Source: Arenicellales bacterium (GTDB taxonomy: Bacteria; Pseudomonadota; Gammaproteobacteria; Arenicellales; JAJDZL01). From it: 64,000 nucleotides of DNA. Where the stretch lies: positions 708,914 through 772,913 of the forward strand of contig OZ243975.1 in assembly GCA_965214785.1 (NCBI GenBank), given 5' to 3'. Positions 8,388 to 48,179 of this stretch are shown one piece after another (position 1 is the first letter of the stretch; each line of letters starts with the position of its first letter). Below the pieces are notes generated by a model. The model made no database searches, was not told where the DNA came from, and saw only the letters and a program-made list of their open reading frames with translations. The translations under genes were made by a program, and so were the position numbers.

Positions 8388-9878
8388 TCAATCAACGGTA
8401 TATTGAGCAACCATATCGACTGCCTTTTTCCATCTCCTCAATAACCTTTTACGTTCATTGCAATCCATCTGCGGTTCAAAAACGCGGTCAAGCTGCCAGT
8501 TATTTTTGATTGAATTCAAAGATGAAAACAACCCGATGTGCAGTCCCGCCAGAAAAGCAGCGCCTAACGCGGTAGTTTCGGTATTGGTTGGCCGATCGAC
8601 CGGGAGATTGATTACATTACAAAGAAACTTGCAGAACCAGTCGTTGTTCGCCATTGCGCCATCGATTCGCAGACGTGCGACGGTACTGCCGTCGCTACGA
8701 ATCGCTTCAAGCAAGTCTGCTGTTTGGTAAGCAACTGATTCCAAGGCCGCGCGGGTGATTTGTGCTTTTCCGGTATCCCTCGTTATTCCGAAAACTGCAC
8801 CACGCGCGTTTGGCAACCAGTGCGGTGCACCTAGTCCGGTTAGCGCAGGCACCAGATAAACCCCACAGTTGTCATTGAGTGAAGCAGCGATATCCGCAGA
8901 TTGCGCCGCGTCTTCGAAAAAATTCAATTCGTCCCTTAACCACTGCATTGCTGCTCCTGCCACAAAAATTGATCCTTCCATCGCATAACAAGTCTGTCCG
9001 TTGAGACGGTAACCAACCGTAGATAGCATCTTGTGTTGAGACTTGATCAATTCACGGTCCGTATTGATTACAACGAAACATCCGGTGCCATAGGTGCTTT
9101 TGACCATGCCGGGCTCAAAGCATGCTTGTCCAATCAAAGCTGCTTGCTGATCACCTGCAACACCGCAAATCGGTAGAGTCTGGCCCAATATCAAAGCGTC
9201 GCTAACACCGAAGTCGTCTGCACTGTTTTTCACTTGAGGCAAACACTGTTCAGGAATGGAAAACAAACGCAGCAGATCTGGATCCCAACGCTGGTTGCGG
9301 ATGTCAAATAACATCGTTCTTGAGGCATTGGTGGCATCGGTCACGTGGTTTGCTCTACCAGTCAAATGCCAAATCAAAAAGGTGTCGACCGTTCCGAACA
9401 TCAGTTCGGCGCGCTCGGCACGTTGTCGCACTCCTTCGACATTGTCCAGAATCCATTTAAACTTGGTAGCTGAAAAATAAGGGTCTGGGAACAGTCCTGT
9501 CTTATCTTGAATTAACGGAATCAATCCATCGTGTTGTAGGGAAGCACAGTAGGATGCTGTTCGTCGATCTTGCCATACGATTGCGTTATAAACGGATTCG
9601 CCTGTATTGCGATCCCACACTACAGCGGTTTCGCGCTGATTTGTAATTCCTATTGCTTTGACAGCACCGGGCAAACTTTCCGCGTATTGCAATACTGCAC
9701 GAGCCACCTCGAGTGTCGTTCCCAAAATATCATTCGGGTCGTGTTCAACCCAGCCATCGTTTGGAAAATGTTGAGCAAACTCTTTTTGCTCAGTGTGGCG
9801 AACCTGTCCGTCCTGATCAATCAGGAGTGCCCGAGAACTGGTTGTACCCTGATCTATGCTTAGAATATAGGATTGCAT
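8388..9878 (-). CDS. glpK: Glycerol kinase
   Basis: 496 aa. The N-terminus YILSIDQGTTSSRALLID and the GITNQRET motif are typical of FGGY-family GlpK. Confidence 0.95.
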   Translation of the reverse strand: MQSYILSIDQGTTSSRALLIDQDGQVRHTEQKEFAQHFPNDGWVEHDPNDILGTTLEVARAVLQYAESLPGAVKAIGITNQRETAVVWDRNTGESVYNAIVWQDRRTASYCASLQHDGLIPLIQDKTGLFPDPYFSATKFKWILDNVEGVRQRAERAELMFGTVDTFLIWHLTGRANHVTDATNASRTMLFDIRNQRWDPDLLRLFSIPEQCLPQVKNSADDFGVSDALILGQTLPICGVAGDQQAALIGQACFEPGMVKSTYGTGCFVVINTDRELIKSQHKMLSTVGYRLNGQTCYAMEGSIFVAGAAMQWLRDELNFFEDAAQSADIAASLNDNCGVYLVPALTGLGAPHWLPNARGAVFGITRDTGKAQITRAALESVAYQTADLLEAIRSDGSTVARLRIDGAMANNDWFCKFLCNVINLPVDRPTNTETTALGAAFLAGLHIGLFSSLNSIKNNWQLDRVFEPQMDCNERKRLLRRWKKAVDMVAQYTVD

Positions 9879-10092
9879 TGAAATTTTCGTTTGTCAAAGC
9901 GTTGTTTCTGAGTCTGTATCAATGATATTCGTTTATATCTTGAATTCCGAAGAGTTAAATCGCATAGGATGACACGATTCTATTTCATCATCGTCAGAGT
10001 GTCAGGAAGTGTATTGGACGCGGAATATTTCAACAGTACAAGCGTCAAGGTAATACAATAAGCGCCTGAGTTTTGATGGACTAATACTGACA

Positions 10093-12834
10093 GTGGTAGG
10101 AACAAGACTTAAACAAAAGTGCTTGAAAATGCAATTCACACACATAAATTTCAGTAACCGAACCGAGTTTTATTCATCGCGGCATCCGCGTTATAAATCC
10201 AAACCGTTCTACCCCCCCCCCGCTGGATCTAGTCGCCGCTTAGCACCGCCTGTCGTAAGCGCAAGTACTGCGACAGATCACTTTCGTCTTCATCCTCAAA
10301 CTTGCGGCATCAAGACCGCATTTTTGTGCTCAGCCTTATCAGCAGCACTTGCAGCATCGCTGTCAAGCGCTGATACCACACAGCAAACGATTGAACAGGC
10401 CATTGACTATCCGGAAGGTGCTGTAGCCAGAATCACTTCTGTCGCACCCAAAGATGCGCTGTGGACGCTTGAGGGTGAAGACGCAAAAAGATTATTGATC
10501 GAAGACGGTGTACTTCGATTTTCTGAAGACGGCCTTCGAGTCGCCCGACCTGATTTTGAAATCCCCCGTGATGCAGACGGTGACAATGTCTACCGCGTTC
10601 GCGTAACGCGCATTATCGATGATGCAGATAAAAAGCGAAGCTATGATTTCGTAATCAGGGTCACCGACCGCGATGAACCAGGTCGCATCAAGACATCCAC
10701 CGTTCACCCAGTCAACGGTGAAACTGTTCAGGTTCATCTTACAGACCCTGATGACATCGAAGGAGAGATCCGATGGCGCTGGCAGCGCTCGGCGGAACCT
10801 GACCAATGGATTTCCATTGATGCCGTCAATTCTTCCTCCTACACCCCAAACGCAGGCGATACAGGTCACTTCATTCGCGTCATCGCTGAGTACCACGACC
10901 GTCTAGGCGGTCCCCGTACGGTAAAGGCTCTTTTACCTGAAACTGTAATTGGCCCAAAGCTACTATCTTTAGATGCCAAAACCGACCATGGCGGAAAAAC
11001 ACTTCATCCGCTGTTTGACCCTGTCATCACTCACTACGGCATCGAATGTGACGAGCGCGATGTGTTGAGTGTGAACTTCACCTTACCACAAGATATCAAA
11101 GCATCAGTCAACGCCATACAGCCTCGCCCGGGGCGCAAGACAGGAGCAGCGGCAGCTGTAGAAGAAACCAGTGATACAAAGATTGTCTTATCTCAAGCAG
11201 ACGGTGCGAGTACGACCTACACCATACACTGTCTGCCACAGCAGCTTGCCAAGATACGAACCAAACCGGATCCGAACAATCCGCTTGACGTACTGCTTGG
11301 GGTAACAGCAGGGCCCTTTGCAGCAGTGATTGACGAAAACGGAGTCTCGCGCGCGCATATCAAGGCAAGCCGCGGCAAATCAGGTTTCTTTTTTCGACCT
11401 TTCGGCTCAGGGCACAACATGCGCTTTGCGCATGTTGAAACATCAGCAGAAGAAAAACAGCACTGGCGAGTGCTTGATCGAAACTTCAATACGGTGCGCA
11501 CCGTTGCCACCGCTTCGCCTTTGACCACGACCGGGCGTCACGACTTTCGGCTGCTTGCAGATGGTTCTTCTCTGCTGATGACTTATGAACCTCAAGTTCG
11601 GGACTTCAGTTATCTTTCTTTTCCTGACCCAGACGGTGAACCGTGGGGAAGCGCGGTAGAAACCGAAGATTCAGCTATTCAATGGCTCGGTCCTGACGGC
11701 AAAGTGCGGTGGACCTGGAATTCCTGGGGCCGAATACCACTTGAAGACTGTTCACAGCACCGTTTTCCGCAAGACTGGGCGCATGTCAATTCAATTGAAT
11801 GGACAGATCAAGGCGTACTGGCATCTTTTCGCGGCTGCTCTTCAATTTTGATGATTGACCCTAAAGCTCCATCAGGAGACGAGATCGTCTGGCGTATTGG
11901 CAGAACCAATTTGCAGGCAGATGAGTGGAAAGAACGCGGTCTTAGTCCGCCTCCGCTTGCGATTGTCGGTGATCCGGAAGGTGAGTTTTGCGGTCAGCAC
12001 GCGGCAATGCTGCTGGCGCCACCTGCAGGATTGGAGCTTTCGCGCTTACTTTTGTTTGATAACGGTGTTGCTTGTGTAACCAACCCACATACAGGTGAGT
12101 CACTTGGCCGCGAATCTGACCGTTACAGCAGAGCTTTAGAATACGCAATTGATGTTGCAAACGAAGAAGCGATCTTTGTACGCGACCATGCTCTTGGCAA
12201 TAGCCGAGACCGCCTTGGCTTTGCAGGCGGTCATGTAGAACCTTTATCTGACGGCAAGTGGCTTGTGAGTTGGGGCGGAGGTGGAGCAAACAACACCGGT
12301 GAAAACCTTGGCCTTGAGATTACTGACTTGGTGACAGCAGTTGATCCAGACAAAGGACAAGAAACCTTTTCCATCCCGGTTGGCGATGATGACAAAGCGA
12401 CTGCCGGATTTCGGGTACTGCCTGTTGCATTGGATCTGTTGATGCGCCCGCAAGCGCAATTGCATGCATTTTTTCCAGACCCGCTGCCACCTTCTCACGA
12501 TGGTGCAGGTAAGACATTTTCGATTCTTGTGTCTTTTTCTCGGCCGATCTCAGACTTTGGTGTAGATACCCCGTCCATTGAGATTAGCGGCGGTGAACTT
12601 ACCGAAGTACAAGCTTTCACTTCATTCGGGCGACCTGCAAACAGTTATGAGATTTTCATCAAACCTGCTGCAAGCGATCCGATGTGCCTGTCGTTTCGGA
12701 CAAAAATCAGCTGCACTGAAAGAGAAAGCATATGCAGTGCTGACGGGACTGAGCTCACCGAAGCACCAGAACCTTTTTTGATTCCAGGCAGTGACTTATC
12801 CAACGGTCAGTCGCACACAAACAAGTGCACATGA
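10093..12834 (+). CDS. Secreted multidomain protein with cadherin-like beta-sandwich modules and an arylsulfotransferase (ASST)-like beta-propeller. The start codon is uncertain.
   Basis: A signal-peptide-like segment KTAFLCSALSAALAASLSSA|DT occurs only at residues 74-93. A cadherin-like segment reads LSLDAKTDHGGKTLHPLFDPVITHYGIEC...TTYTIHC. ASST-like motifs are GRHDFRLLADG and DWAHVNSIEWTDQGVLASFRGCSSILMIDP...IVWRIGRTN. No ATG, GTG or TTG lies between the C10 tract and the signal peptide. Confidence 0.7.
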   Translation: MVGTRLKQKCLKMQFTHINFSNRTEFYSSRHPRYKSKPFYPPPAGSSRRLAPPVVSASTATDHFRLHPQTCGIKTAFLCSALSAALAASLSSADTTQQTIEQAIDYPEGAVARITSVAPKDALWTLEGEDAKRLLIEDGVLRFSEDGLRVARPDFEIPRDADGDNVYRVRVTRIIDDADKKRSYDFVIRVTDRDEPGRIKTSTVHPVNGETVQVHLTDPDDIEGEIRWRWQRSAEPDQWISIDAVNSSSYTPNAGDTGHFIRVIAEYHDRLGGPRTVKALLPETVIGPKLLSLDAKTDHGGKTLHPLFDPVITHYGIECDERDVLSVNFTLPQDIKASVNAIQPRPGRKTGAAAAVEETSDTKIVLSQADGASTTYTIHCLPQQLAKIRTKPDPNNPLDVLLGVTAGPFAAVIDENGVSRAHIKASRGKSGFFFRPFGSGHNMRFAHVETSAEEKQHWRVLDRNFNTVRTVATASPLTTTGRHDFRLLADGSSLLMTYEPQVRDFSYLSFPDPDGEPWGSAVETEDSAIQWLGPDGKVRWTWNSWGRIPLEDCSQHRFPQDWAHVNSIEWTDQGVLASFRGCSSILMIDPKAPSGDEIVWRIGRTNLQADEWKERGLSPPPLAIVGDPEGEFCGQHAAMLLAPPAGLELSRLLLFDNGVACVTNPHTGESLGRESDRYSRALEYAIDVANEEAIFVRDHALGNSRDRLGFAGGHVEPLSDGKWLVSWGGGGANNTGENLGLEITDLVTAVDPDKGQETFSIPVGDDDKATAGFRVLPVALDLLMRPQAQLHAFFPDPLPPSHDGAGKTFSILVSFSRPISDFGVDTPSIEISGGELTEVQAFTSFGRPANSYEIFIKPAASDPMCLSFRTKISCTERESICSADGTELTEAPEPFLIPGSDLSNGQSHTNKCT
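10212..10221 (+). repeat. Homopolymeric C10 tract inside the 5' end of the 10093-12834 ORF
   Basis: Read directly: tac ccc ccc ccc gct (Y40-P41-P42-P43). The ten consecutive C residues lie 28 codons after the ATG at 10129 and about 90 nt before the signal-peptide coding region. Confidence 0.95.
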
Positions 12835-12901
12835 ACAAATCAAAAGATCCAAAACCCTTGCGCGTTTGTCGCAATCGGTCAGATAACAAAGGAGTTTACC
12901 T

Positions 12902-15900
12902 ATGAACGGTTCAAGCAAAGATCGAACTGACAATCCGGTTATTGAAATTAGGCCTAAGTTTTGTTTTAAACGATGTAGTCGGTTGAGTCATTACAGGGCT
13001 GGCGCTGCATCGCAATATGCTGGACGCTTATTTCGAAATGTGATGACCGGATTGCTGGCGCTGCTGATCGCGGCTACGTGGATGTCGGGGGCGCAGGCGC
13101 AATCAACGGCCAATCCCGCTGGCTTGTGCGAAGGTCAGATAACGGAAGTCACTTTTTCAGATGTTTCAGCAAGCAGCACCACCACCCCAACTTGGGTCGA
13201 TATAACCAATACTTCTTTTTCTTCCGGTCATGTGTGGTTTGTGAATACCGACGGCACGAATGCGGGTCAGTCCAATTTTCCGGTGAGCGTGGTAAACGAC
13301 AGTTTTACTGTACGAATTCAGCTTGCAGATAATCTCGTGACGAGTTCTGGAGCGTCAACCGTATCTGTTAGTGAATTGAGTTCGAGCTATTGGGACGGCG
13401 TAAGATTTGATATCTGGGATTCTACGGATTCGAGATGCGCGGCCAGTACCACCGACGGCGTCACCCTTTCCGTATCCGCCCTAACTTTGACCGAGCTTGG
13501 TAGTTCCAGCGATGCCGAGAAGACCTACACCGTAGTGCTTGACACCGATCCGGGCGCCGATGTGACCTTCACGGCGACGGTGCCGGCGGCAAACAGCTCC
13601 GAGGTCGAGATCAAGACCGGCAGCGGCGCTTTCGGCAGCAGCGCCACGCTCACTTTCACCCATGGCAATACCGGCAACTGGAGTTCGGCGCAGACGGTGA
13701 CGGTCAGGGCGCTGAACGATGCCAATGCAACCAACACCACCTCCTTCAACCTCACTCACAGCCTGACCGTGGCCAGCGGTCCCTACGCAAGCATCACACC
13801 GGACCCGGTTGCGGTGTCGGTGACCGACGCCGGCCACGGGGTCACCGTGTCCAAGGCCAGCGTTTCGGCGACGGTGGGTGGCGCTACCGGGACCTACACG
13901 ATCCAGCTCAAAAGCCAGCCTGGCGGCTCGGTGGTCATCACGCCGACCTCGAGCGCCACGGCGAGGGCCACGGTGTCGGGCGCCCTGACTTTTACGAACT
14001 CGAACTGGTCCACGCCGCAGACGGTGACCGTGACTGGCGTCGATGCTGGCTCGGCCACGATCAGCCACATGGTGACGACCGGCACCACGGACTACCCGAC
14101 CAGCACGACGATCGCCTCGGTGACGGCGACGGTCACAACGTCAACGTCGTCAGTTCCGGTGATTTCGATGTCGCTTCCGAGCGGCGAGAGCGAGATGTAC
14201 ACGGATGACGACGAGCTGATCCGCCCGGAAAGCGAGGGCGGTACCGGCGTGCTGTTCACCGTGAGTGCCGACCGGCCGCTGCCGAGCACGCTGACGGTGT
14301 GCGTGCGGGTGACCGAGAGCGGCGGCGACCGGGTGACCTCGGGCAATGAGGGCATCAAGACGGTGAGCCTGCCCAGCGAGACCCTCACCACCAGTTCGAA
14401 CACCCACAGTCTCACCTGGACAAACACGAACACGGACGACCAGGACAGCAGCGTGACCGTCGAGGTAGTGGCGCCCAGCACAGTGGGCTGCTCGGTGGCC
14501 AACGACGCCTACACGGTCTCGTCCAGCGACGCCTCGGACAAGCTACTCATTCAGGATGACGAGGCGACCACGGTCTCGCTCACAAGTACAGACATAACCA
14601 TGACCGAGGGCGATGCCTCGGACACTGCTACGCTCACGGTTTCGCTGTCCCGCCAGCTCTATGCCGGCGAGGTCATCGTCGTACCGTTGACGTTGGCGTC
14701 GAGCACCGGAGCGCGGCTGCCGGGGAGCACGAACAGCGGCACTGCCAACCACGATTTTACGGTCGCGGCGGCGGCCGCGTCCGGACATAGCGGTTTGACA
14801 ATCGCGAACGCATTGACGGCCACGCCGAGCCTGACCTTCACCGGCCACGACAGCAATACGGTGCAGACGGCGACGGTGACGCTGACCCCGGTGGCGAACC
14901 GCGATGACGGAAACATGGCCCGCGAGTCGATCACCGTGACACTAGCGTCCGACAGCATACTCGGCGCCACCGGGACGGGCACGACGGTGAGCGGCGGCGT
15001 TCAGCGGCATGCGTCGAACAACGCGGCGACCCTGACCTTAGAGGACGACGAGGCAGTTCCGGCCGGCACGCCGGGCATCACCCTGTCGCCGCTCGGCCCG
15101 CTGCGCCTGCTGGAGACCGGCACGACGAGCTACACGGTAGTGCTCGACGCGGCGCCGACGCATGATGTGACGGTCACTGTTACCAAGAGCCAGGCGGGTT
15201 TAACGGGAACGGGAACGGGACGCACACCCGACCAAAATGCTGCGGACCCCAGCTCGAATCAACTCACCTTCACGACTACGAACTGGAGCCAGCCGCAGAC
15301 GGTGACCGTGACAGGGGCGGACGAGTCCGGCAGGCACCGGAACCGCGCGATGCGTTTAATCCATTCGGCAGGATCGACCGACTCCCGCTACACTGGCTTC
15401 AACACCAACATCCGGGTCGATGTGGACGACGCGCCCGAGGTTGAGGCGTTTTGGTACATCAAGGGCGGCGGCGCGCTCAATTCGCGGATCCGGCGACCGC
15501 ATACGATAACGTCAAGCGGGCTGACGGCGTGGCAGAACGCGGCACCCGGCGACAGAATAAACTACGCCGTACGCCTGTCGAACCGCCCGGCGCCCGGCGG
15601 CACGGTGACAGTGACAGCGACGGTGCCTTCCGACAAGCGCAACCTCGTCGGCCTGTCGCTGACCGAAGGCGGCACGGCGCAAGACACGGTGACGGTTGAG
15701 TTCAAGGACCGCAGTCCCGGCGCAGGCACGGGCTGCAGCAACTGGTTCGGCCATCAAGCGCATCAATACTTCGACAGCCACGGCAACACGCGGACAGTGT
15801 CGGGCCGCCAGCCAGGCGAGAGCTACGACGGCACGGCGGACACGCCCTGGGAGTGCTGGCGCATGATTTATGTGGTGCGCAAGGACGCCTCGCGCGACAT

Positions 15901-18900
15901 CGATGACACTTGCGTCGACATCACCCACACCGCCACAGGCGGCGGCGTGCGCAAGGTCACGGTCGATACGATCCGCGCCCATGTAAGGAACCCGTCGCGC
16001 AACAGACGGGGGTCAAGAGGTTACAATAGCCAATGCTCCAACCTGACCGGCAACACGCTTTCCCCGCAAGGATCGCCCGCGAAGGCCGCACCCACACCCA
16101 CCGAGGCGGTGGCCAATGTTCAGGTGACGGCGGTGGACGACACCAGTGCCAGCGTCACCTGGGATGCGGTAGAGCACGCCACCTCCTATGACGTGTCGTG
16201 GAGTGCTGAAAGCAGCGACGCTCTGAACGCTTCGGCCGGTGACTTGCCCGGCATAACGGCCACCACGACCACCATCGACCACGGCGCCTCGGTACCGATG
16301 ACACTTACGGTTACAGTAATACCGGAATACATCGATGAAAACGGTGACACCGTACAATTGGATGATCTTGGTACAACAGCAACATTGGAAGTCGGCCCTG
16401 GAAGCGATGCCCTTCGCGCTGAAGCACAAAGCCCGGATACACAATCGACGCAATCGGCTGTAACACCCGCGCAGCGTTTGGAGGCAGCTAAGCTGTGCGT
16501 GTCAGACACGCTGATGGAAAAGACAAAGCGTTATTACGAACTTCACCGAAACAAGGCACCGGGTTATGGTGCGAACTGGTTTGCTATTTTGACTGCGTTT
16601 GGCGAACGTACGCAAGTCGACTGGACAGCTGACAGTCGTAGCATAGAGCCGATGAGCGCCGCTTCTTCGCGCGAGCGCGAGTCGAAGTGGAGCGGCTGGA
16701 AGCCTTTTACCGAAGCATTGGAATGTGTAGAGGGAGAACTTGCAAAGGTACAAGCTGCCGCACAAGCCGAAGCACAAGCGGCAGAACAAGCGGCAGAACA
16801 AGCCGATGAAGTCGCACCACTAGTGCTACCGGATGATCTGACAGTGACATTAGAATCCGCTGATTCAGCATCCGGCGTAACAGAAGGCACTGAAGTGTCT
16901 TTTACGCTCAAGGCAGACAGTGCACCGACAAAAGAGCTTGAAGTGACGGTAACGGTCACTCAGACAGGCAGCGTTGCAGATACTTCAGCCACAGGCGAGC
17001 GCAAAGTAACGATTCCGGTCGGTCAGACGCAAGCGGCTTTTAAAGTAGCAACATTAGCCGATGACACCGATGAGGTACAAGGTTCTCTAACGGCAACCGT
17101 ATCAGACGGTACAGGCTATAAGACAGATGATCAAAGTGCAAGTGTAACGGTAGCTGTAAATGATGATGATGCAACATCCATTACGCTCAGTGCCAGTGCA
17201 GACGATCTGACAGAGATTGTTTCTGAAGGATCAAGCAAAAAGACACTGACAGTCACATTAGGGCGTACACTGATCGAAGGTGAAAGCATCGAAGTGCCGC
17301 TTGTCTTTACCGGCACCGCATCGCTTGGCAGCGACTATACGCTTGAAGCGCCAAAGACAGTACCAACCGGGGTGAGCTATGCCAACCTTGGAGGCAGTGA
17401 TCCTGCCAAGGCACCGACAGTGACTTTTGCAGGTTCTACAGGTGGTGTATCTTCACTAACAGCAACACTGACGCTGACCACAGTTGCCGACAGCAAAGCT
17501 GAAGATGACAAAGAGACCGTTACAGTCAAATTGGGCACACCGGCTACAACAGGATTAGGCGGCGGTGTTTCGACTTCTGGAAACGTACAGTTCTCCATCT
17601 TGGAGCCTGTACCTGAGATTTCCATTACAGCAAAGACAGAAACGGTTACAGAAGGTACAGATGCGGTATTCACTGTAAAAGCTAGCCGATCTTCAGGATC
17701 TGACCTTACAGTTAATCTTACAGTCTCAGAATCGGAGGGCAGCGACTTCGTTGCCGCAGATAAAGAAGGTACAGCTACAGTTACCATCACCAAAGGGGAG
17801 ACGGAAGCTGACTTTTCAGTACCGACTGTAAACGATACGGTCAATGAACCCGATGGGTCGGTAACCGTAACGGTTGTCGAAGACGGTGAAAAAGGACAGT
17901 ATTACTCTCAAGCCTCATCACCTGGAGATTCAGCTTCTATAAAAATCACCGACAACGATGCAGTTGCGACGGGACCGGAATTTTCTGTAGCTGATGAAAC
18001 CGCCAATGAGAATGTGGGTTTAATGTACTTTACGGTTCGCTTGGATCGTTCATTGAGTCAAAAAGTACAAGTGACATTCAACGTACGCGAATCGAGTCCT
18101 GTCTCAGCCCGTATGGGACAAGATTACTTTTGGTGGTGGGAAGACGGTCTTGCGCTTACCTTTTACCCGGGTCAGACCCAAAAGAAGATGTGGGTATATG
18201 TCTATAACGACAATCACGACGAAGACCCTGAGACCTTTGAGGTGGTGTTATCGAATCCGACAGGGGGTACAGCCATCGGTGATGGTGTTGCGGTTGGTAC
18301 CATTGTGAACTCTGATCCGATGCCAGCTGCGTGGTTGTCGAGGTTTGGGCGCACCGCTGCGCAGCAAGCCTTAGACGGCATTGCCGCTCGCATTGAATCT
18401 TCAAGAACTTCAGGTATTGAAGGCTCTATAGCCGGACAGGCGCTTGTGTTTGATCCCCAATCCAAATCACTTGTCACAAGCGGTACAGCACAAAACAGTA
18501 CTGCAAACAGTCTTACTGAAACATCATCGCTTGCAAGCTTTGATGCAGATCATGCATTTGGAGATAAAAAAGACGCATCAGGCAATACCGATCCCTTCGG
18601 TTACCAGTCGTATTCTATGACTGAGCGAGAAGCGCTTTTAGCAAGCTCTTTCACGGCAACCGAAGATAAAGATTCATCTGGAGGCTCTTTGGCCTTTTGG
18701 GGCCAGGCTTCACAATCGAACTTCGATGGAACAGAAGGGACGTTTTCCTTAGACGGAGAGGCGACTACTTTGATGAGCGGTACCGATTATGCACGAGGCG
18801 AGTGGCTTTTAGGCATCGCATTGATGCAATCCAAAGGCAAAGGCGGTTATCGCGATACCGATACGGTAAAGCAAGCGGATCTTCCGCAATGTAAAGAAGA

Positions 18901-46216: not shown

Positions 46217-47137
46217 TTACGATGTGTTTTTATTGAGTTGCGGAATTGTATAGGGCATCTGATCGACACTAAGACGTATTGGTGTTGCGTTTTCGAGTTT
46301 CAATTCATTCGCACCAAGAAATCTCAGCGGTAAAGACACCAGCAGACGCTGAGTTCCATCGTCATGTTCAAGCTGTGACTCAACAACCGTTCCAGTCTGA
46401 TTTCCCGGGATGTCCGAACATTCGATTTTAGTCCCAACGGTGATAGTAGTTGCCGACTCGCAAGTTGCCTGAAACATTCTGTGGTTAACGCCACCTTTGT
46501 AATGCAGTCTGGCGACAATCTCTTGTCCAGGGTAGCATCCTTTGACAAAACTGACCGCACCAATTAAGTCCAGATTCACAGCTTGCGGCACATACTGTTC
46601 GTGGTTTGCTTTCCTTATCCATGCAATGGCGGCATAGACATCCTGTAAAAACCAGTTGGCGGCTTGTGGTTGAATATTATGAGAACTGATGGATTTTTCA
46701 TTCGCCAGTATGACAAATCTCTGAGATCTTCCGGGTAAACGCACAGTTTTACATTGGTGATACAAACCTGTTTCGAGATCATTGTCAGGTAATTGAACAT
46801 CAGATTCTATGCTGTCAGCAGCACCTTGAATCCCATATGCTGTCATACCACACAACGTCTGGATGTCGACTTTATCCCGAAAAACAAAAATTTTCAATCG
46901 ATTCACAAAATCATCGACAAGATCGCTTGCTAGAATGAGGTAATAGTTATTCTCGCCATCCAAAATGATGATGAAATTAGCGATAATGCGACCTTTGGGT
47001 GAAAGATAAGCGCCGAAAGAAGCTTTCGTACTTGTCACTGCATGCATATCGTTTGTCAATTGTCTCTGAAGAAATGAAAACGCATCTTCACCAGAAATTT
47101 GAACGACAGAAAAAAAATCAAGTTGTGTAAATCGCAT
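46217..47137 (-). CDS. ygfZ: Folate-binding tRNA-modification/Fe-S cluster repair protein YgfZ (GcvT-like)
   Basis: 306 aa. It has the signature KGCYPGQEIVARLHYKGGVNHRM. Confidence 0.8.
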   Translation of the reverse strand: MRFTQLDFFSVVQISGEDAFSFLQRQLTNDMHAVTSTKASFGAYLSPKGRIIANFIIILDGENNYYLILASDLVDDFVNRLKIFVFRDKVDIQTLCGMTAYGIQGAADSIESDVQLPDNDLETGLYHQCKTVRLPGRSQRFVILANEKSISSHNIQPQAANWFLQDVYAAIAWIRKANHEQYVPQAVNLDLIGAVSFVKGCYPGQEIVARLHYKGGVNHRMFQATCESATTITVGTKIECSDIPGNQTGTVVESQLEHDDGTQRLLVSLPLRFLGANELKLENATPIRLSVDQMPYTIPQLNKNTS

Positions 47138-47486
47138 TTTTTATACAACCATTTTTACGCAATAGCTTGCCGATAAAACTCAATTAAACCAATTTACAAA
47201 AAAGTAATTGCTCGTCTTTATGGAAATAGGTGTTGTATCGTAAGGGCAAATACATTAAGCCAATGCAATCGATCATCATTTCTACGACTTGGTTAATTTA
47301 TTCTTGCAGGTAAAGGAATTGACAACAAAATTGAATCGTACAACGGCCGATCAGTACGTTGAAAGTGTTGGTTCTTGTATAGCATCGACTCGGCATGTGC
47401 AGGCTATGCCAAGGTAGCTTCTATCAAGTCATTGCCTGGCTTGGAATTGTGTCTTTTGAAATATTAAAGTGTCCAAGGTTTTAGAA

Positions 47487-47783
47487 TCATTGACCGGAAC
47501 AGCTGTTTATCTTTTTTCGGAGTGAATCAACCTGTTCGCGATTGAGTCTCGTTAACTCGACAATCTCATCGGATTTCATACCCCTTAGCAGCAATTTTGC
47601 CGCGACCTCTTCATGACCTTTTTCAATGCCTTGTTCAATGCCTTGTTCAATACCTTTTTCAATGCCTTGTTCAATGCCTTTTTTTAAACCTTCTTCCTGA
47701 AGTTCATCTATAGCTGACATCACCATCTGTTTTTCCTCTGGCGTTCTGGTTTCAAAACTCGATTTCTCTAAACGGTCGGCCAA
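47487..47783 (-). CDS. Stand-alone copy of the Rpn-like C-terminal tail domain (RpnS-like small protein), long-repeat variant
   Basis: 98-aa ORF with a TTG start and no obvious SD. MADRLEKSSFETRTPEEKQMVMSAIDELQEEGLKK(GIEQ/GIEK)x5 GHEEVAAKLLLRGMKSDEIVELTRLNREQVDSLRKKINSCSGQ is homologous to the last roughly 75 aa of the 48313-49245 protein. Confidence 0.5.
   Translation of the reverse strand: MADRLEKSSFETRTPEEKQMVMSAIDELQEEGLKKGIEQGIEKGIEQGIEQGIEKGHEEVAAKLLLRGMKSDEIVELTRLNREQVDSLRKKINSCSGQ
47619..47690 (-). repeat. 12-bp in-frame coding repeat (GIEQ/GIEK units), six units
   Basis: Plus strand: tttttcaatgcc ttgttcaatgcc ttgttcaatacc tttttcaatgcc ttgttcaatgcc tttttttaaacc. The paralogous copy at 48051-48074 has two units. 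The parental gene has EEGR-type units instead. Confidence 0.9.
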
Positions 47784-47918
47784 TGCGAGTGAATTGTTGA
47801 CTTTCGTATAAAGTCGACTTGAAATGTACAGGCTTTTACCAAAAGGCAGCTTCTATTGAAACGCTACTTATCTTGGAATTGTGTCTTTTGGAATATCGAA
47901 GTGTCCAAGGTTTTAGAA

Positions 47919-48179
47919 TCATTGTCCGGAAGAGCCGTTTATCTTTTTTCGGAGTGAATCAACCTGTTCGCGATTGAGTCTCGTTAACTCGACAATCTCA
48001 TCGGATTTCATACCCCTTAGCAGCAATTTTGCCGCGACCTCTTCATGACCTTTTTCAATGCCTTGTTCAATGCCTTCTTTCCGACCTTCTTCCCGAAGTT
48101 CATCTATAGCGGACATCACCATCTGTTTTTCCTCTGACGTTCTGGTTTCAAAACTCGATTTCTCAAAACGGTCGGCCAA
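47919..48179 (-). CDS. Stand-alone copy of the Rpn-like C-terminal tail domain (RpnS-like small protein), short-repeat variant
   Basis: 86-aa ORF with a TTG start. The sequence is MADRFEKSSFETRTSEEKQMVMSAIDELREEGRKEGIEQGIEKGHEEVAAKLLLRGMKSDEIVELTRLNREQVDSLRKKINGSSGQ. Confidence 0.5.
   Translation of the reverse strand: MADRFEKSSFETRTSEEKQMVMSAIDELREEGRKEGIEQGIEKGHEEVAAKLLLRGMKSDEIVELTRLNREQVDSLRKKINGSSGQ

Follow-up and report, generated by a model that had tools for sequence, protein, structure and literature searches.

Within a stretch of 64,000 nucleotides from an Arenicellales bacterium (hereafter 'the window'), a single long reading frame encodes a giant protein, with a putative surface location and host-interaction function, whose central part is written in codons far richer in G+C than those at either end. 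The question raised by this locus is how one gene came to carry two compositions, and in particular whether the central block was acquired, as the original prediction held, by recent recombinational capture of a cassette from a high-GC donor. The product is exactly identical to P0248 of the protein collection (on a contig of 2,960,598 bp), and its gene lies in an accessory insert that interrupts a conserved dapD-glnD-map / rpsB-tsf-pyrH-frr cluster and that also contains an FGGY kinase, an ASST-like gene and a 216-aa orphan (Table 1). No mobile-element gene was found beside the window copy of the giant gene, and no viral contigs carrying the GC-rich module were found. The true start of the protein may be M47 rather than M1, as read from its translation, and the AQA motif of the putative signal peptide is also kept in L002, a ~63%-GC organism from the same metagenome. 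The host itself is a low-GC bacterium and apparently a sponge symbiont, to judge by how the MAGs with homologs are named.

Table 1. Features of the giant gene and its surroundings (window positions)
Feature	Position	Strand	Basis
Accessory insert, ~13 kb, between map and rpsB	8388..20666	.	gene order
Giant surface-protein ORF (putative), single, 2327 aa	12902..19885	+	ORF list and translation
Probable Sec signal peptide, putative (MTGLLALLIAATWMSGAQA, aa 47-65)	13040..13096	+	read from translation
N-terminal domain, host-like codon usage, GC3 0.40-0.57	13100..13435	+	
5' compositional junction, ML point 13436 (2-lnL support)	13424..13523	+	change-point fit
GC-rich block, codons 179-1133, GC 0.652, GC3 0.823	13436..16300	+	GC windows, codon positions, ML fit
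S1: two beta-sandwich modules with NW..QTVTVT motif	13436..14135	+	
S2: Calx-beta-like beta-sandwich modules	14156..15054	+	AF2, structural match
S3: one beta-sandwich module	15062..15420	+	
S4: cysteine-containing beta-sandwich and most of FN3-like domain	15421..16300	+	
3' compositional and recombination junction, ML point 16300 (2-lnL support), inside the end of FN3-like domain	16282..16309	+	
Rest of extracellular part: linker domain and Calx-beta repeats, GC3 ~0.44, host composition	16301..18400	+	
C-terminal outer-membrane beta-barrel, predicted, host-like composition, ends ...FEAIARW	18401..19882	+	AF2, Foldseek
Four long antisense ORFs	13481-14068, 14092-14502, 15512-15982, 16013-16453	-	ORF list

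Composition and limits of the block

In 1-kb windows across the whole 64 kb, raw GC stood at 0.655-0.656 over positions 14001-16000 and at 0.39-0.55 elsewhere, while in 200-nt windows it ran from 0.585 to 0.695 over 13400-16299 and dropped to 0.46-0.50 immediately 5' and to 0.52-0.55 immediately 3' of the block. These profiles, together with a step in GC3 at both edges, bear out the original prediction of an abrupt GC-rich block of about 2.9 kb inside one reading frame. Its range of 62-80% G+C was roughly right for short windows (50-nt windows span 0.50-0.82 around the mean of 0.652), and its figure of 45-48% outside the block does not fit the 3' side, where GC is 0.50-0.57 for about 700 bp. 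A maximum-likelihood fit of two change points to third codon positions (2ΔlnL = 362) moved the limits only slightly, from 13430-16310 (residues 177-1135) to 13436-16300.

By codon position, the block displays GC1 0.548, GC2 0.584 and GC3 0.821, against 0.576, 0.519 and 0.439 in its C-terminal flank and a GC3 of 0.46 in its N-terminal flank. GC1 and GC2 are nearly flat between block and flank, and the step is confined to synonymous sites, lying 10 SD off the backbone (42 ORFs in the window, GC3 0.444 ± 0.038, range 0.37-0.53). The 2.9-kb block contains four antisense ORFs reaching 120 aa or more, whereas the remaining 57 kb have about nine, and two of its antisense frames show stop densities as low as 0.010 and 0.021 where the backbone has ~0.04; these counts support the earlier view of the antisense cluster as a spurious by-product, which arises because GC-rich DNA is depleted of stop codons.

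Segments, relatives and the 3' junction

When the block and its flanks were compared separately, the block was found to match other classes and phyla, and the identity of the flank to collapse at 16300. Judged from these matches, four segments or more (S1 to S4) are pieced together in the block, with breakpoints near 14140-14156, 15054-15062 and 15411-15420, and with nearest relatives that differ segment by segment. S1, the structure model of which has low confidence, displays ~89% identity (BLAST) to the sister copy L005, rising to 92-95% in most sub-windows and falling to 71% in a low-GC patch at 13862-13981; its identity to L002 over 13862-14100 is 91-97%. In L005, S1 is immediately followed by a 1.49-kb insertion of He_PIG-type modules. 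S2 displays 74-83% nucleotide identity to copies from Alphaproteobacteria, Binatia and Gammaproteobacteria, many of the foreign HSPs starting exactly at 14156, and its AF2 model (pLDDT mostly >80) matches NCX1 CBD12 with a TMt of 0.51. Inside the block the likeness to Calx-beta is structural only; the sequence match that places the protein in that domain class (PF03160, two stretches; aa 1694-1791, nt 17981-18274, with E = 4e-15 when that segment is scanned alone) lies outside it.

The two remaining segments have closer relatives. S3 is 97-99% identical at the nucleotide level to high-GC L002, and its 3' end is the recurrent breakpoint near 15411-15420. S4 displays 86-93% nucleotide identity to copies from Thalassobaculaceae, other Alphaproteobacteria, Binatia and Gammaproteobacteria, and 93-100% amino-acid identity to P0130, a paralog on the window's own 2.96-Mb contig that resembles the giant protein at 93-100% from aa 841 on and at 38-80% before. 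The fn3 model (PF00041) scores 21.3 bits at aa 1069-1123 (E = 3.3e-4), below the Pfam cutoff of 25; the structure model shows a beta-sandwich there, and some homologs of the giant protein carry a precomputed PF00041 match.

At 16300 the similarity to distant taxa changes abruptly. Against seven foreign full-length copies, nucleotide identity of the window is 86-93% upstream of that point and 53-55% downstream (aa 1134-1300), with 62-66% in the Calx-beta repeats, only 53-66% over 16301..18400 as a whole, and 57-62% in the barrel; the same foreign copies compared with one another are 83-95% identical over aa 1134-1300, with no break at the junction. The protein alignment to them runs on through this point (TLTVTVTPEY.DENGDT), and the codons switch from GC-ending to AT-ending at ~16297-16303. 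That flip is identical in the window, in L005 and in L001, a sister strain, and the junction recurs in three diverged contigs and in one paralog (P0130). The 5' compositional junction is likewise present in L002 and L005. Upstream of it, the N-terminal domain displays 89-96% nucleotide identity to P0002 of L002, and L005 carries another low-GC domain in its place.

The module itself was found in ~60 loci spread over at least 12 bacterial classes, almost all of these loci being in MAGs with sponge-symbiont names, and with GC 0.64-0.73 and GC3 0.80-0.95 regardless of the GC of the flanks (0.47-0.71). Its composition is native to high-GC hosts, whereas in low-GC hosts it forms an island; the GC3 of the barrel in each lower-GC host drifts towards that of the host (0.56-0.77), with the core remaining at 0.84-0.91. 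Nucleotide identity between copies reaches 96% for Thalassobaculaceae and Binatia, 98% for Thalassobaculaceae and the Alphaproteobacteria MAG OZ244041, and 91% for Thalassobaculaceae and Thermoanaerobaculia. Full-length homologs (~2000 aa), forming a family without a name that is annotated 'hypothetical protein', occur in many genomes with the same collinear order of block, linker, Calx-beta repeats and barrel, which indicates that the event was a replacement within an existing family member. No single donor was found for the block, the best foreign matches displaying 79-93% identity over long stretches.

Probable origin of the mosaic

The giant gene is very probably a mosaic, produced by repeated sub-genic homologous replacement out of a high-GC pool that spans phyla. 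The N-terminal ~178 and C-terminal ~1190 codons would have resided long enough in a gammaproteobacterial lineage of ~45% GC to acquire host codon usage, and codons 179-1133 would have been drawn from a pool of homologous high-GC modules circulating among co-resident bacteria of many phyla. DNA of a homologous family member would replace the matching part of the resident gene, presumably by homologous recombination, with crossovers in conserved stretches that would preserve reading frame and domain order. Repeated piecemeal, in segments of ~0.3-1 kb, such replacement would hold the block at a donor-like GC3, with the vertically inherited anchor matching the host. The composition and the AT-biased private changes suggest transfer into the window lineage, although traffic between low-GC and high-GC hosts appears to run both ways, given the low-GC N-terminal domain carried by L002.

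Of the capture originally proposed, the foreign high-GC segment and its in-frame join are borne out by the codon step and the drop in identity; the widespread collinear homologs argue against a novel cassette, and the patchwork against a single donor. The word 'recent' applies in a relative sense. The 97-99% tracts in L002 and the other block variant in L001 indicate that replacement is still going on, but the junction at 16300 is older than the split between paralogs and alleles, which have diverged by ~4-5%, so that the founding event was not very recent. AT-biased private substitutions have also already appeared in the block, clearly so in S4.

Among the alternatives, a single ancient acquisition of the whole gene from a high-GC donor, with subsequent amelioration that went to completion elsewhere but lagged in the block, is very unlikely. 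It would fit an architecture that is common in its entirety to high-GC genomes, and a barrel that is partly ameliorated in other low-GC hosts, but amelioration would not make a step within ~30 nt and leaves the fall from 92% to 54% identity at one codon position unexplained. Nor does it account for L001, in which the same rpsB locus has a backbone 98.1% identical to the window and a block that, upstream of window position 16076, is 82% identical or unmatched, its corresponding segment displaying 94.0% identity to a Binatia copy; close relatives (L001 and P0130) thus share flanks and differ in the segment.

Local GC-biased gene conversion, or mutational bias in hyper-recombining repeats, acting without foreign import, is very unlikely. 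Recombination raises GC3 in bacteria, and the block often recombines among paralogs and alleles; such processes, however, cannot give 86-93% identity to other classes and phyla that stops exactly at the junction, and the private changes of the window lineage run from GC to AT. In S4, the changes that set the window apart from the foreign consensus are biased in that direction by 33:5, versus 13:18 in pooled controls (Fisher p = 1e-4), with nearly the same counts in the L005 block copy; the signal in S2 is weak (p = 0.011, not significant under a stricter control set).

An assembly chimera, in which a metagenome assembler joined a high-GC homolog into a low-GC genome, had been raised as a doubt at the outset. 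The source is indeed a metagenome assembly, in which co-resident genomes with tracts up to 97-99% identical could mislead an assembler, but the same 3' junction is found in the window, in L001 (118x coverage) and in L005 (34x), contigs that differ by 2-5%, and in the paralog P0130. This recurrence, the near-identical AT-biased difference counts of the window and L005 blocks, and a reading frame uninterrupted over 7 kb make a chimera most improbable. Equally negligible is the proposal that amino-acid bias or local selection on composition demands GC-rich codons, which the GC3 and expected-GC computations refute: T, A, G, V and S are frequent in the block and its GC2 is a little higher (0.584 vs 0.519), but its amino acids recoded with backbone codon usage predict GC 0.524 and GC3 0.45 against the observed 0.652 and 0.823 (in both flanks observed and expected GC agree), codon choice flips within one continuous conserved domain, and the same folds are encoded by distant Aldehydirespirator homologs with a GC3 of 0.45 and by the AT-codon patch of L005, so that the protein does not need GC-rich coding.

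The gene offers a clear example of a horizontally imported intragenic tract with a boundary that can be placed to ~30 nt, and donor pool, transfer direction and early amelioration are all legible from its sequence. By this example, a large uncharacterised surface family would seem to exchange its exposed part across phyla in an apparent sponge microbiome and to inherit its anchor vertically, as would be predicted if those exposed modules served a host interaction common to the symbionts. The example marks aa 419-1166 as a concrete candidate region for host binding, and it is a warning, too, for binning and HGT pipelines in which genes are scored as wholes. More tentatively, and with rather less than even confidence, these modules may form an inter-phylum 'commons', apparently specific to the sponge holobiont, in which segments of ~0.3-1 kb and not genes are exchanged in both directions between low- and high-GC hosts, ongoing recombination keeps 90-98% identity over at least 12 classes, and outer-membrane anchors particular to each lineage take up the segments, so that unrelated symbionts present the same kind of surface to the host. 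Such a surface might mimic or bind the Calx-beta-rich sponge aggregation factor (PMC11670116).

Comparison with known systems

The block had been called a 'passenger' domain, and like type V secretion proteins the giant protein has an N-terminal signal peptide (here putative), a long beta-rich extracellular region and a predicted C-terminal outer-membrane barrel with an aromatic end. The AF2 model of the barrel (pLDDT 60, moderate confidence) has ~19 strands over ~410 residues, unlike the 12 strands and ~280 residues of type V; its Foldseek matches mix TonB-dependent-receptor barrels with the BrkA beta domain (TMt 0.50, a partial match), and no match was found at E <= 1-10 against Pfam, NCBIfam or PDB sequences. 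The label may hold in part, in that an outer-membrane barrel is predicted, but a classical type Va autotransporter is not supported: neither Pfam Autotransporter (PF03797) nor the NCBIfam autotransporter barrel models match the giant protein, the barrel apparently exceeds 12 strands, and the would-be passenger consists of Ig/Calx-beta/FN3-like sandwiches, not a beta-helix.

The mechanism is already known, and the giant gene is a striking example of it. Mosaic precedents include penA/pbp of Neisseria and Streptococcus, the shuffling of passenger or head domains in autotransporters such as Moraxella UspA, and the intimin/eae and vacA mosaics. As in mosaic adhesin and surface genes, an exposed segment is replaced in frame with the membrane anchor conserved, breakpoints fall in conserved stretches, alleles vary between close strains, and the imported tract is marked by a discontinuity of composition or divergence. 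Here, however, the donors come from other classes and phyla (Alphaproteobacteria, Binatota, Acidobacteriota, Actinomycetota, Chloroflexota and others) and not from congeners, the GC3 contrast is ~0.38, and the units exchanged are domain-sized segments of a community-wide pool.

Lateral transfer between sponge symbionts has been described for proteins with attachment and eukaryotic-like domains (fibronectin III, cadherin, Calx-beta; Robbins et al. 2021, PMC8163846), and enrichment of such proteins has been described as well (PMC11706023, PMC9531527). The present case agrees with those studies in the kind of habitat (by MAG names), in the domain classes and in movement between disparate lineages; it differs in that whole genes were scored there, from the top BLASTN match and from counts of domains, whereas the transfer described here is sub-genic, leaves a lineage-specific anchor in place, and has a junction resolved to ~30 nt.

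A composition step within a single reading frame

The giant gene, which encodes a putative surface protein identical to P0248 of the protein collection (on a contig of 2,960,598 bp), resides in a window whose core gene arrangement is gammaproteobacterial (rplI-dnaB-alr; dapD-glnD-map; then rpsB-tsf-pyrH-frr-uppS-cdsA-dxr-rseP-bamA-skp-lpxD-fabZ-lpxA-lpxB-rnhB). The accessory insert that carries it also contains an FGGY kinase gene, an arylsulfotransferase-like (ASST-like) gene and an orphan of 216 residues for which no family match was found. No RNA genes were identified in the window by tRNA or Rfam scanning. The neighboring rpsB product is 393 residues long, with its S2 Pfam domain confined to residues 9-224, and its long C-terminal extension is kept in the sister-strain contig (L001). 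Elsewhere in the window, a YhgA-like (Transposase_31) ORF adjoins the lowest-GC kilobase, around which GC skew is strongly negative.

Features of the window discussed in the text (window positions)
Feature	Position	Strand	Remarks
Accessory insert	8388-20666		about 13 kb, between map and rpsB of the otherwise conserved dapD-glnD-map-rpsB-tsf cluster
ASST-like gene, 5' end	10028-10702		counterpart at L005:1500-2172
Giant gene	12902-19885	+	2327 aa
Block, 5' edge	13436		support 13424-13523
Block segment S1	13436-14135
Block segment S2	14156-15054
Block segment S3	15062-15420
Block segment S4	15421-16300
Block, 3' edge	16300		support 16282-16309
Predicted barrel	18401-19882
rpsB ORF	21111-22292
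Lowest-GC kilobase	47001-48000		GC 0.388
YhgA-like ORF	48313-49371	-

The original prediction described an abrupt GC-rich block inside this one frame, and that block is real: 1-kb windows at 14-16 kb have a GC of 0.655-0.656, as compared to 0.39-0.55 for the rest of the 64 kb, and 200-nt windows have 0.585-0.695 across 13400-16299, with lower values to the 5' side (0.46-0.50) and to the 3' side (0.52-0.55); the entire feature is enclosed by the ORF. When split by codon position, the composition shift is almost entirely synonymous, with GC1, GC2 and GC3 of 0.548, 0.584 and 0.821 in the block as compared to 0.576, 0.519 and 0.439 in the C-terminal part of the gene, a GC3 of 0.46 in the N-terminal part, and a GC3 of 0.444 ± 0.038 across 42 backbone ORFs. 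A two-change-point likelihood fit on third codon positions (2ΔlnL = 362) placed the edges where the prediction had put them. The four long antisense ORFs within the block, which the prediction had likewise associated with its composition, accompany an antisense stop density that is two- to four-fold lower in two of the three frames.

The explanation that amino-acid bias alone generates the step, which the prediction had itself raised, was excluded by recoding the amino acids of the block with backbone codon usage: the expected GC and GC3 (0.524 and 0.45) are far below those observed (0.652 and 0.823), while both flanks have the composition expected from that usage.

Junctions and patchwork structure of the block

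Across the 3' junction the protein aligns without a break to foreign copies, which are homologs in Alphaproteobacteria, Binatia and other Gammaproteobacteria (…MTLTVTVTPEY.DENGDT.QL…), and a switch from GC-ending to AT-ending codons is found at about 16297-16303 in the window, in the sister strain and in L005, a second locus with GDH downstream. Nucleotide identity to seven foreign full-length genes falls at this point, as tabulated below, and BLASTN matches to many foreign loci stop at about 16344-16362.

Nucleotide identity around the 3' junction
Region	Window vs foreign	Foreign vs foreign
880 nt before junction	86-93%	85-97%
500 nt after junction	53-55%	83-95%
Calx-beta repeats	62-66%	69-94%
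Barrel	57-62%	64-90%

The corresponding low-to-high GC3 switch at the 5' junction also occurs in L005 and in L002, a locus from an organism of approximately 63% GC. L002 matches window positions 13082-13440 at 89-96% nucleotide identity, AT-ending codons included, and the N-terminal domain of its gene (P0002, L002:10001-14191) has a low GC3 of 0.42-0.57; the locus is a reverse mosaic, which indicates that segments also move from low-GC to high-GC hosts. The L002 gene belongs to an island, adjoining rpsF-rpsR, that also encodes a tyrosine integrase, ParB, RadC and DUF2201. That integrase/ParB island is a possible transfer vehicle; a scan of viral contigs returned no module copy, leaving a phage vehicle unsupported.

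The block itself is a patchwork whose breakpoints recur near 14140-14156, 15054-15062 and 15411-15420. L002 is 91-97% identical to the window over 13862-14100 and 97-99% over 15062-15420, and 51-84% elsewhere in the block. From 14156 onward to the end of the gene, L005 and the window show 95.9% identity, with no break at the junction; L005 also carries one AT-codon patch and an insertion of He_PIG modules, 1.49 kb long. A frameshift splits the L005 gene, and upstream of this gene lies a 675-bp fragment matching the 5' end of the window's ASST-like gene at 91% identity, which means that a segmental duplication took part of the upstream gene along. The same-genome paralog P0130 (1971 aa, on the same 2.96-Mb contig) is 93-100% identical to the window protein from residue 841 to its end and 38-80% before, which suggests gene conversion or a recent duplication, with the N-terminal modules probably replaced independently. 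In the sister strain, at the same rpsB locus, the backbone is 98.1% identical, and upstream of 16076 similarity to the window is lost. For the corresponding sister-strain segment, identity is 94.0% with a copy from Binatia and 91% with one from Alphaproteobacteria that belongs to a different subfamily. From these comparisons of alleles and paralogs, the junction at 16300 is older than the divergence of the alleles, and overwriting of block content is ongoing.

Where the window lineage alone departs from the foreign consensus, the changes are biased from GC to AT, at a ratio of 33:5 in S4 as compared to 13:18 in controls (p = 1e-4) and of 66:15 in S2, where the contrast is weaker; the counts for L005 nearly equal those of the window. 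This bias is consistent with a block that entered a low-GC lineage and has since begun to ameliorate. A single old import that ameliorated unevenly can yield neither a step within about 30 nt nor strain-specific variants of the block, and gBGC without import cannot produce similarity to other phyla that stops at the block boundary and is contrary to private changes that run toward AT. An assembly chimera, against which the prediction had cited the uninterrupted frame, is made further unlikely by a comparison among contigs, in which three diverged contigs and a paralog share the junctions.

Family layout, predicted anchor and distribution across phyla

For the block (residues 177-1135), 395 homologs were found that are 40-87% identical to it, and almost all of them come from metagenome assemblies; the names of the few that have one (Ca. 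Poriferisodalis, Nitrospira SB0677_bin_15, Acidimicrobiaceae) point to sponge symbionts. The C-terminal part is nearly identical in two relatives (96% and 94%), after which identity drops to approximately 59%, a level at which more than 100 proteins of approximately 1950-2000 residues share the architecture of the giant protein. In their alignment the block belongs to the standard collinear layout of the family, and it is therefore not an alien cassette placed into an unrelated gene; the proposed capture of a passenger-domain cassette is supported as recombinational import of a high-GC segment, probably by replacement inside an existing family member.

Pfam identified only Calx-beta in the giant protein (residues 1694-1791), with fn3, fn3_6 and LapA below threshold. 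An AlphaFold model of the block (58 sequences; mean pLDDT 72.6, residues 240-959 mostly above 80) is a chain of beta-sandwich domains, for which Foldseek returned only generic multi-Ig-domain matches (alpha-2-macroglobulin/CD109, integrin legs, NCX1 Calx-beta CBD12) that assign no specific function. The C-terminal 494 residues are modeled as a beta-barrel of approximately 19 strands (pLDDT 60), similar in Foldseek to outer-membrane barrels, among them the beta domain of the autotransporter BrkA; searches of Pfam, NCBIfam and PDB sequences returned nothing useful for this region. Because a barrel-like model is accompanied by no match to an autotransporter sequence model, the protein is best described as a predicted outer-membrane-anchored, autotransporter-like surface protein rather than as an established member of type Va. 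The modeled barrel, which may represent an undescribed type, is unusually large, and a highly conserved motif (DPMPAAWL.RFGRT) precedes it.

A scan of one genome per species identified 61 module loci in Alphaproteobacteria (including Thalassobaculaceae), Gammaproteobacteria (Arenicellales, Pseudomonadales, Ca. Porisulfidus and Ca. Poriferihabitaceae), Binatia, Thermodesulfobacteriota, Acidimicrobiia, Dehalococcoidia, Poribacteria, Nitrospira, Thermoanaerobaculia and Vicinamibacteria. Apart from two distant homologs, module GC is 0.64-0.73 and GC3 0.80-0.95, with host flanks anywhere from 0.47 to 0.71. In high-GC hosts the module is compositionally native, and GC3 is flat across the whole gene (0.82-0.96). 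In lower-GC hosts (Thermodesulfobacteriota with at least eight copies, Arenicellales, Nitrospira and the window) it forms an island. In every lower-GC host, barrel GC3 has moved toward that of the host (0.56-0.77), and the core block has remained at 0.84-0.91. The copies in OZ219878.1, a 2.0-Mb Thermodesulfobacteriota MAG with flanks of 0.47-0.53 GC (at least eight; loci L018, L019, L024, L029, L038, L046 and L050, and also L003), all have a GC3 of 0.80-0.85; in several, a fused Laminin_G_3 or pentaxin-like end takes the place of the barrel.

Segments of 0.9 kb display 90-98% nucleotide identity between copies in different classes and phyla (for example, 96% between Thalassobaculaceae and Binatia, and 91% between Thermoanaerobaculia and Thalassobaculaceae), which is incompatible with vertical descent, and within one genome, module copies often reach 98-100%. 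Such identities indicate recent exchange, together with homogenisation of copies within genomes.

Comparison with known systems

Mosaic surface-protein genes formed by intragenic recombination are of a well-known kind, to which the giant gene adds an exposed block that is shared while the anchor is inherited vertically, two-way exchange, and a very large GC3 contrast. The block may be part of a holobiont-wide pool of domain-sized modules. In sponge symbionts, lateral transfer of genes for FN3, cadherin and other eukaryotic-like domains has been described at the level of whole genes (PMC8163846), and enrichment of Calx-beta and fn3 domains has also been reported (PMC11706023, PMC9531527); in contrast to those whole-gene transfers, the case in the window is resolved at the sub-genic level.
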